Shown: piece after piece, positions 55,607 to 58,552 of the stretch | Position numbering within the stretch: position 1 is the first letter of the stretch | Layout of the letters: the number at the start of each line of letters is the position of its first letter | Assembly (NCBI GenBank): GCA_026388015.1 | Contig: JAPLKO010000047.1 | Location: 32,878 to 96,877 of the forward strand | Direction of reading: 5' to 3' | From: Candidatus Firestoneibacteriota bacterium | GTDB lineage: Bacteria; Oederibacteriota; D2-FULL-39-29 | DNA: 64,000 bases | Position numbers and translations under genes: made by a program | The notes under the pieces: generated by a model | The model's database searches: none | Seen by the model: the letters and a program-made list of their open reading frames with translations, nothing else | What the model was told of the DNA's origin: nothing

Positions 55607-58552
55607 TATGGTCAAGCCGAACGGCGGATTAGTACCGGTTAGCTGAAACACTCGCGTGCCTTACACTCCCGGCCTATCAAACTCATAGTCTATAAGTTGC
55701 CTTCAGGGATATCTAATCTTGGGGCGAGTTTCACACTTATATGCTTTCAGCGTTTATCTCGTCCGAACATAGCTACTCGGCATTACCATTGGCATGATAA
55801 CCGATACACCAGAGGTTCGTCCATTCCGGTCCTCTCGTACTAGGAATAGCTCCCCGCAAATATCCTGCGCCCACAGCATATAGAGACCAAACTGTCTCAA
55901 GACGTTTTGAACCCAGCTCACGTACCGCTTTAATTGGCGAACAGCCAAACCCTTGGGAGCTACTTCACCCCCAGGATGCGATGAGCCGACATCGAGTAGC
56001 TTTTGTCCGTTGAGCGATGACCCTTCCACTCGGTATCACCGGATCACTAAGACCTACTTTCGTACCTGCTTGACCCGTCGGTCTTGCAGTCAAGCTCCCT
56101 TATACCTTTACATTCGACACGCGATTTCCAACCGCGCTGAGGGAACCTTTGTACACCTCCGTTACTCTTTAGGAGGAAACCGCCCCAGTTAAACTGCCCA
56201 CCAGGCATTGTCTCCACGCCGGATTACGGCGCAGATTAGGATCTCAAAACAACAAGGGTAGTATTCCACTGTTCGGCTCCACATCACCTAGCGGCAATGC
56301 CTCAACGCCTCCTACCTATTCTCTACAAATCGATTCAAAATCCAGTACCAAGTTACAGTAAAGCTTCATGGGGTCTTTTCGTCTAGCTGCAGGTATCCTG
56401 CATCTTCACAGGAACTACAATTTCGCCGAGTCTTCTGTTGAGACAGTGCCTGGATTGTTGTGCCATTCATGCAGGTCGGAATTTACCCGACGAGGGATTT
56501 CGCTACCTTAGGACCGTTATAGTTACGGCCGCCGTTTACCGGGGCTTAGATTCAATGCTTCGTCTTGCGACTGACATCTCCTCATGACCTTCCGGCACTG
56601 GGCAGGCATCAGACCCTATACATCCTCTTACGAGTTAGCAGAGTCCTGTGTTTTTGTTAAACAGTCATCCAAGCCTATTCACTGCGGCAACTTCACGCAT
56701 AGCTGAGTTAACAACTACACGCTAATGTTGCACCCCTTCTCACGAAGTTACGGGGTGATTAGGCCGAGTTCCTTAACAGAAGTTCTCTCGAACGCCTTGG
56801 TATCTTCTACCCGTCTACCTGAGTCGGTTTACGGTACGGATACGATAAAGTCTGACTAGAGGTTATTTCTCGTCAGTGTGGAATCAATCAATTCATATAC
56901 GAGTCTCCCCGTATACTACCCATCACTTTTCAGCGTTTAATGAGTCACCGGATTTGCCTGGCAACCCCGCCTAAGAGCTTAGACATACACTACCGGCCGT
57001 ATGCTGACCTATCCTACTGCGTCGCCCCATCGCTGATAACGACTTTACCATAGTACAGGAATATTAACCTGTTATCCATCATCTACACCTTTCGGTCTCG
57101 ACTTAGGTTCCCGACTTACCCTGAGAGGATTAACCTAGCTCAAGGAAACCTTAGACTTACGGCGTCAAAGTTTTTCACTTTGATTTACGCTACTTATGCC
57201 TGCATCATCACTTCTAGTTCGTCCATGTAACCTCCCGGTCACACTTCACACTACAATAGAACGCTCCTTTACCACTCTTCCCTTGCGGGACAAGTCCATA
57301 GCTTCGGTACTATACTTTAGCCCCGGACATTTTCGGCGCAAAATCACTCGACCAGTGAGCTGTTACGCACTCTTTAAATGATGGCTGCTTCTAAGCCAAC
57401 ATCCTGGCTGTTTAAGTAATTTCACATCCTTTGCCACTTAGTATAAATTTAGGGACCTTAGCTGATGGTCTGGGCTGTTTCCCTCTCGAATATGGACCTT
57501 AGCGCTCATATTCTGACTCCCGAAATCTACACAATGGTATTCGGAGTTTGAATGGTTTCTGCAGGTTTATTCAACCCCATAGACCAATCAGAGCTCTACC
57601 CCCACTGTTATAATTTCGAGGCTAGCCTTAAAGCTATTTCAAGGAGAACCAGCTATCACCAAGTTCGATTAGCTTTTCACTCCTACCCTCACCTCATCGG
57701 AGATTTTTGCAACAATCACCCGTTCGGACCTCCATAAGCTGTTACGCTTACTTCATCCTGGACAAGGGTAGATCACTTGGCTTCGGGTCTAATCGATGCA
57801 ACTAATCGCGCTATTAACACTCGCTTTCGCTACGGCTCCACAGCTCAAGGCTGCTTAACCTTGCTGCACCGACTAACTCGCAGGCTCATTAACCAATAGG
57901 CACGCAATCATCCGTCTTGCGACGGACTCTTACTGCTTGTAGGCATACGGTTTCAGGTTCTTTTGACTCCCTTCTTAAGGGTTCTTTTCACCTTTCCCTC
58001 GCGGTACTTGTTCACTATCGGTCGCTAGAGAGTATTTAGTCTTAGCCAGTGGTCTGGCCGGATTCCTGCAGAATTTCACGTGTCCCGCAGTACTTGGGAG
58101 CATGTCTCCGAGATCATAAATCTTTCGCCTACCGGACTATCACCGTCTATGGTTATCCGTTCCAGGATATTCGACTAGATTACGATTTTTAACTCGGACG
58201 CTGCTTTGCACAGCAGCATGACCGTCCCGCGACACCTCTTGCAAAACGCGTGCAGGCTATAATTGCAAAAGGTTTAGACTCCTTCCCGTTCGCTCGCCAC
58301 TACTAGGGAAATGATCCCCGTAAGGGGATTCTCTTTTCCTCGGGTTACTGAGATGTTTCACTTCACCCGGTTGTCTCCGTAGGACTATTTTATTTATCCC
58401 ACGGCTCAACGTTAACACGTTGAAAGTTTCCTCATTCGGATATCTTCGGATCAAAGCATGCAGACAGCTCCCCGAAGCTTTTCGCAGTCTACCACGTCCT
58501 TCATAGGCTTCTAGCGCCAAGGCATTCACCGTACGCCCTTAGTAGCTTGACC
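55607..58552 (-). rRNA. rrl: 23S rRNA (ends approximate), with an about 59-nt deletion in domain V
   Basis: Conserved 23S motifs throughout (GGTCAAG ends, AGTACCGCGAGGGAAAGG, CCTAAGGTAGCG, GAGCTGGGTT); segment equivalent to E. coli ~2443-2501 absent. Confidence 0.97.

Follow-up and report, generated by a model that had tools for sequence, protein, structure and literature searches.

A 59-nucleotide gap in the catalytic core of a bacterial 23S rRNA gene is probably an assembly artefact

Introduction

Can a bacterium carry a 23S rRNA gene that lacks the catalytic loop of the peptidyl-transferase centre? The question is raised by an rrn operon in a draft metagenome-assembled genome of a Candidatus Firestoneibacteriota bacterium (1.69 Mb, 64 contigs, 94% estimated completeness). 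The operon lies in a 64,000-nucleotide stretch of DNA, the whole of which is referred to as the window. A preliminary, sequence-only reading of this stretch had described a loss of about 59 nt from the 23S rRNA gene. As explanations it had offered an assembly error, a non-functional operon copy, a repair scar after cleavage at a known intron site, or a split rRNA with the piece supplied from elsewhere.

The segment concerned contains the peptidyl-transferase loop, with A2450, A2451 and C2452, a part of the ribosome established as indispensable. Deletion of A2451 together with the remainder of the catalytic loop in the sole 23S copy of a cell is incompatible with life. The gap must be weighed against the state of the rest of the operon, the number of operons in the genome, the same region in relatives and the quality of the assembly.

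Results

A single clean gap removes the peptidyl-transferase loop and helix 89

The rrn operon occupies positions 55366–60507 of the window on the minus strand and consists of 16S, tRNA-Ile, tRNA-Ala, 23S and 5S genes. Its features are as follows.

55366–55482, minus strand: 5S rRNA gene (Rfam RF00001, 93.2 bits)
55608–58552, minus strand: 23S rRNA gene (Rfam RF02541, 2616.8 bits, model positions 1–2925), full length except for the 59-nt gap
55994–55996, minus strand: junction triplet CTC (GAG on the plus strand), where 59 nt (E. coli 2443–2501) are absent
58715–58877, minus strand: spacer genes for tRNA-Ile(GAU) and tRNA-Ala(UGC) (ARAGORN, Rfam tRNA)
58980–60507, minus strand: 16S rRNA gene, intact (Rfam RF00177, 1537 bits, model positions 1–1533)

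The 23S gene is recognized by the Rfam model with 2616.8 bits, compared with a gathering score of 50. Full-length alignment to this covariance model revealed one clean gap, model positions 2467–2525, for which the window has no counterpart; the suspected loss is thus real in the deposited sequence and amounts to exactly 59 nt. Read directly from the window, the sense strand at the junction is ...AAAAGCUA-CUC-GAUGUCGGC, or ACGGACAAAAGCTA-CTC-GATGTCGGCTCATCGC in DNA letters, and the contiguous read over the fused site is ACGGACAAAAGCTACTCGATGTCGGCTCATCGC.

The absent nucleotides comprise 6 nt of the 3' strand of H74, GAUAACAG, the 42-nt helix 89 and ACC. In E. coli terms, the end of H74, G2447–G2454 including A2451, all of helix 89 and A2497–C2501 are lost, so that neither the central loop of LSU domain V nor helix 89 is present in the gene. 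The E. coli numbering is our own count from the landmarks G2447, A2503, G2553 and U2585. It matches the span 2443–2501, with A2451 and all of helix 89, that had been given before; the loss reads 2440–2498 if the other CUC is counted as the survivor.

Where the relatives have two CTC triplets flanking the segment, the window has only one. Their sequences thereby bear out the earlier proposal that two CUC triplets have collapsed into the GAG at 55994–55996. By our calculation, about 5% of random deletions would show at least 3 nt of identity at the junction by chance, and the CTC identity is weak evidence of a homology-guided join. The window strain has the specific flank GGACAAAAGCTACTC at the junction; the intact-form sequence that would adjoin this flank is TGGGGATAACAGG. 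The missing segment in its intact form is written GGGGATAACAGG...GGCAC and also GGGGAUAACAGG...GGCAC.

The remainder of the gene and the operon is well preserved

The rest of the operon had been described as intact, and this holds for the 16S gene (1537 bits), tRNA-Ile, tRNA-Ala and the 5S gene (93 bits). Two genomes of the same genus served for close comparison, G001 (RIFOXYA2_FULL_40_8, MFGS01000183.1) and G002. The 16S gene of the window is 97.5–98.4% identical to those of G002 and G001 and has no large indel. The 23S gene is 98.5% identical to its counterparts in the same two genomes, and all indels besides the gap are of 1 nt.

At columns without variation among four relatives, the 23S gene of the window has ten substitutions of its own. 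Three compensatory pairs (57931/57906, 57926/57911 and 56113/56104) account for six of these, a pattern that marks an rRNA whose structure is maintained by selection. The compensatory pairs, together with the 98.5% identity, indicate that the 23S gene is not a decayed gene. The other four substitutions are uncompensated; for two of them, the column does not vary among the 17 relatives.

55900, minus strand: G to U at the first base of the GNRA tetraloop of helix 93 (E. coli G2595 by our count), uncompensated, invariant in 17 relatives
55879, minus strand: C to A at E. coli C2616, in the internal loop of H73, uncompensated, column invariant in 17 relatives

These two changes, both G:C to T:A, follow the junction at distances of 96 and 117 nt, respectively, in the 3' direction. 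They could be genuine, or could reflect assembly of the stretch from few reads or poor ones. At 478 columns that are invariant in relatives, the window has four changes (one compensatory pair and the two uncompensated ones). Since the relatives have 0–16 such changes, the window is within their range and decay is not shown.

The operon is the only one in the assembled genome

Blastn searches with the 16S and 23S genes of the window revealed no other 16S or 23S gene, whole or partial, in the 64 contigs outside the window operon. Likewise, no second 23S was detected by the Rfam LSU model in the genome contigs outside this operon. The operon is located inside a 175-kb scaffold with unique flanks. 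A scaffold running through the operon into unique flanks argues against a near-identical second operon, because short reads could not have spanned one of two such copies. The operon count proposed as a check by the sequence-only reading therefore gives a single operon in a 94%-complete draft, with no second intact one. One 23S gene each is found in complete or nearly complete relatives, namely G015, which is a single contig, and G025, G022 and G030, which consist of 5–7 contigs. As the rrn operon is the sole one in the draft, a real deletion would leave the cell without a catalytic centre.

The missing segment was also sought elsewhere. An nhmmer search of the other 1.68 Mb with a profile of the 59-nt segment from 17 relatives found no copy; the best match (E = 0.39, 11.7 bits) has no likeness to the rRNA segment. 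Exact searches of the genome for GGGATAACAGG[CT]T and TTGGCACCTC gave matches in non-rRNA contexts only. The genome search suggested earlier thus found no second copy of the segment in the assembled genome.

Relatives carry the segment, and some assemblies break at the same place

Alignment with the 23S genes of close relatives, likewise proposed beforehand, showed that these have the segment, without change in its length. At the site of the gap, CTCTGGGGATAACAGGCTGATCGCATCCAAGAGTTCATATCGACGATGCGGTTTGGCAC is present in both G001 and G002, the same-genus genomes with a 23S gene. Measured from AAAAG to GTCGGCTC, the region has an invariable length of 81 nt in 17 relatives across the phylum.

For a survey of the phylum we used a 361-nt probe from G002, which matched 42 genomes. 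Of these, 36 are intact and gap-free over a match length of 361–363 nt. None of the 36, which have the region in one piece, contains an insertion in the probe region, and hence no intron or endonuclease gene at L2449 or L2500.

Two sister metagenome-assembled genomes (MAGs) have losses in this region. The 23S gene of G053 contains two 'NN' placeholders (contig C3, approximately 30548–30556, and a second site) that hide 10 nt and about 111 nt. That of G076 (contig C98, approximately 677–680) contains one 'NN' placeholder in place of about 85 missing nucleotides. The losses are in domain V and include sequence of helices 89–92 and the A-loop, so that the deposited 23S genes of these two genomes are also defective in the catalytic core. 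At least four more genomes (G091, G048, G024 and G093) match the probe over part of its length only; in G091, G093 and G024 the match breaks off where the contig ends. Altogether, about one in seven phylum assemblies with any of the region is broken or incomplete within the core of about 130 nt that is common to the bacteria of a community. The site of the gap in the window is thus one at which other assemblies also break off or lack sequence.

The fused junction AAAAGNTACYCGATGTCGGCTCAT had no match in the other species-representative genomes, a set that may not include the genome of the window or its near kin. Its sole match in JGI metagenome contigs is a chance one, inside a protein-coding stretch.

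Gap sizes in the assembly are unreliable

One scaffold join elsewhere in the same genome has a demonstrably wrong gap size. At C45:15399–15406, an 8-N scaffold gap interrupts a gyrB-like gene, the flanks overlap by 6 nt (ATCTCT), and the encoded protein reads straight across the gap (...KGLGE|MNPEQLW...). In view of the overlap, the Ns do not stand for missing sequence, and they interrupt a reading frame that is in fact intact. The assembly therefore contains scaffold joins whose gap sizes are not reliable. Taking the gyrB-like gap together with the 'NN' placeholders of the sister MAGs, gap sizes are seen to be wrong by 14 to about 109 nt.

We also searched independent assemblies for the locus. 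The flanking padR-like, HAAS-domain and sigma-factor genes were found in the Logan assemblies of SRR20698640, SRR26784071 and SRR26784072 and in the ENA assembly ERZ4201063. The flanks in SRR20698640 are 100% identical to the window, and those in SRR26784071, SRR26784072 and ERZ4201063 are from relatives with 97–99% identity. The junction is not reached in any of these assemblies, as the contigs end in the 5S gene (window position 55455) or near the start of the 16S gene (about 60450–60470, as judged by the lengths of the contigs). Twenty-one exact look-ups of spurious ORFs inside the 23S gene, intended to lead to Logan contigs, found none on record. A homology search with the 91-residue ORF that spans the junction returned nothing above 82% identity, and thus no same-species copy is present in the collection searched.

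The same comparison revealed a difference next to the operon. In the Logan contig of SRR20698640 (L033:500–3063), a 2564-bp element of the IS21 family (istA/istB) lies between the 5S gene and the padR-like gene; the window is without this element at the corresponding site (54957–54962). A 99.8% identical copy is found at C23:47141–49716 of the window's own genome, which suggests an active element that is polymorphic within the population. A further observation concerns genome size, which is 1.69 Mb at 94% completeness for the genome of the window as against 2.8–3.0 Mb at 80–96% in two genomes of the same genus.

Discussion

An unmarked scaffold join is the probable explanation of the gap

We conclude, with a probability of about 80%, that the 59-nt gap is an assembly artefact and not a property of the ribosome of the living organism. 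The actual chromosome would then have the 59 nt in place, like the genomes of the same genus. This conclusion is drawn from five results: the rrn operon is the sole one in the draft, the segment is not found elsewhere, the gene is otherwise healthy, gap sizes in the assembly are wrong, and the site is a trouble spot in sister MAGs. Among the four options of the sequence-only reading, the assembly error is therefore favoured; the non-functional copy and the split rRNA are disfavoured, and the repair scar is without support.

All bacteria in a community share the most conserved core of 23S domain V, and for this reason short-read metagenome assemblers tend to break there. As for the exact software step behind the join, we infer the following. 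Two contig ends on either side of the conserved core would have been linked by read pairs and then joined in a scaffolding or gap-closing step. Presumably the distance between them was under-estimated (zero or negative), in which case no N would have been written. The join may have used the 3-nt CTC overlap, or may have displayed it by coincidence.

Unmarked or undersized scaffold gaps in the rRNA genes of MAGs are the closest parallel, in keeping with the familiar problem that rRNA genes are hard to assemble from metagenomes. Here too the most conserved core of the 23S gene is lost, and the loss is unique to one assembly. The sister MAGs G053 and G076 have their gaps in the same core of about 130 nt, with 'NN' placeholders that are far too short. 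The window differs in that its junction contains no N and shows a 3-nt identity, features that resemble a clean biological deletion. The absence of an N, unlike in G053 and G076, counts against an artefact. De Bruijn assemblers do not normally create a junction from a mere 3-nt overlap. Without an N and with only 3 nt of overlap, the join requires either a scaffolder that merged contigs on a zero or negative gap, or real reads bearing the deletion. Merging on short overlaps is, moreover, not a general rule of this assembly, as the 6-nt overlap at the gyrB-like gap was left unmerged.

Alternatives in which the deletion exists in DNA molecules

The second of these requirements leads to the main alternative, a slippage or microhomology-mediated deletion that is real in a minority of molecules. 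It would be carried by a fraction of the cells, by part of the chromosome copies in a polyploid cell, or solely by library molecules that arose by template switching during PCR or MDA. The assembler would then have followed the deletion path, while the intact path may have been tangled with identical 23S k-mers of other species. The N-free junction with its 3-nt CTC identity is in line with this, as is the need of de Bruijn assemblers for reads that support a junction, and the uncompensated changes at 55900 and 55879 could mean that the stretch was built from few or damaged molecules. However, a cell with that allele alone makes no protein, so the allele must be rare or exist beside an intact copy. 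The junction is absent from independent contigs, both of species-representative genomes and of metagenomes, and the single-stranded DNA fold of the intact region is not unusual (z = 0.47 against shuffled sequences). All in all, we regard a minority deletion as unlikely. Hairpin-driven skipping by the polymerase was considered as a specific mechanism and rejected, because the intact region, as DNA, does not fold more stably than its shuffles (z = 0.47).

Replication slippage and other microhomology-mediated deletions likewise leave one CTC where two flank the lost segment. The window differs from known cases in that an identity of 3 nt is near chance (about 5%) and in that an essential single-copy gene would be destroyed, a loss that could not become fixed in a population.

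An improbable alternative is a dead rrn copy, with the functional second operon missing from the 94%-complete draft. The incompleteness of the draft leaves room for such an operon, and the copy in the window combines its deletion with uncompensated changes (G2595U and C2616A) at two invariant sites. Yet the contigs, their ends included, yielded no further 16S or 23S gene and no rRNA fragment, the scaffold built from short reads crosses the operon, which is unexpected in the presence of a near-identical second copy, and complete relatives have one 23S gene. The compensatory evolution, the 98.5% identity to congeners and the four changes at invariant columns, compared with 0–16 in relatives, also speak against a dead copy.

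It is very improbable that the gap is a repair scar left by a homing endonuclease that cleaved at the L2449 or L2500 intron sites. The deleted span covers what we take to be both classical intron insertion sites, L2449 and L2500, and microhomology is typical of end joining. However, all 36 relatives with the region in one piece (361–363 nt) are free of insertions, and a scar in the sole 23S gene would be equally lethal. No more credible is a deletion that is real and fixed in the sole rrn operon, be it with the piece supplied from an unassembled locus or with intact and deleted alleles side by side in a polyploid cell. The least probable reading, a split 23S rRNA whose 59-nt piece is provided in trans from another locus, has nothing in its favour beyond the gap itself and the approximately 6% of the genome that is unassembled, and is countered by the negative profile and exact motif searches in the other 1.68 Mb.

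Comparison with natural departures from the canonical rRNA

We know of no ribosome that builds its catalytic loop from a separate 59-nt RNA. Fragmented or reduced rRNAs, such as 23S rRNAs processed at intervening sequences and those of CPR bacteria and mitochondria, share with the window a departure from the canonical continuous layout. To our knowledge, however, they lose peripheral helices or gain spacers, and never lose the catalytic loop around A2451. In the window, the catalytic loop is gone and no separate piece is encoded; its 23S gene is not a member of this natural class. Our literature search brought up no case in which helix 89 or the catalytic loop was deleted and the cell remained viable. 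For another universally conserved 23S element, the sarcin-ricin loop, deletion is described as dominant lethal in E. coli (PMC11912913).

Implications

If the gap were true, a bacterium whose sole 23S gene is devoid of the peptidyl-transferase loop would contradict a fundamental principle of ribosome biology. Taken as an artefact, the gap calls for caution only: draft MAGs can hold unmarked joins in the most conserved parts of rRNA genes, and such joins mimic microhomology deletions. Losses in this region are found in two of the 42 phylum genomes that match the probe, and structural or phylogenetic surveys of uncultured phyla that are based on rRNA should screen for joins of this kind.
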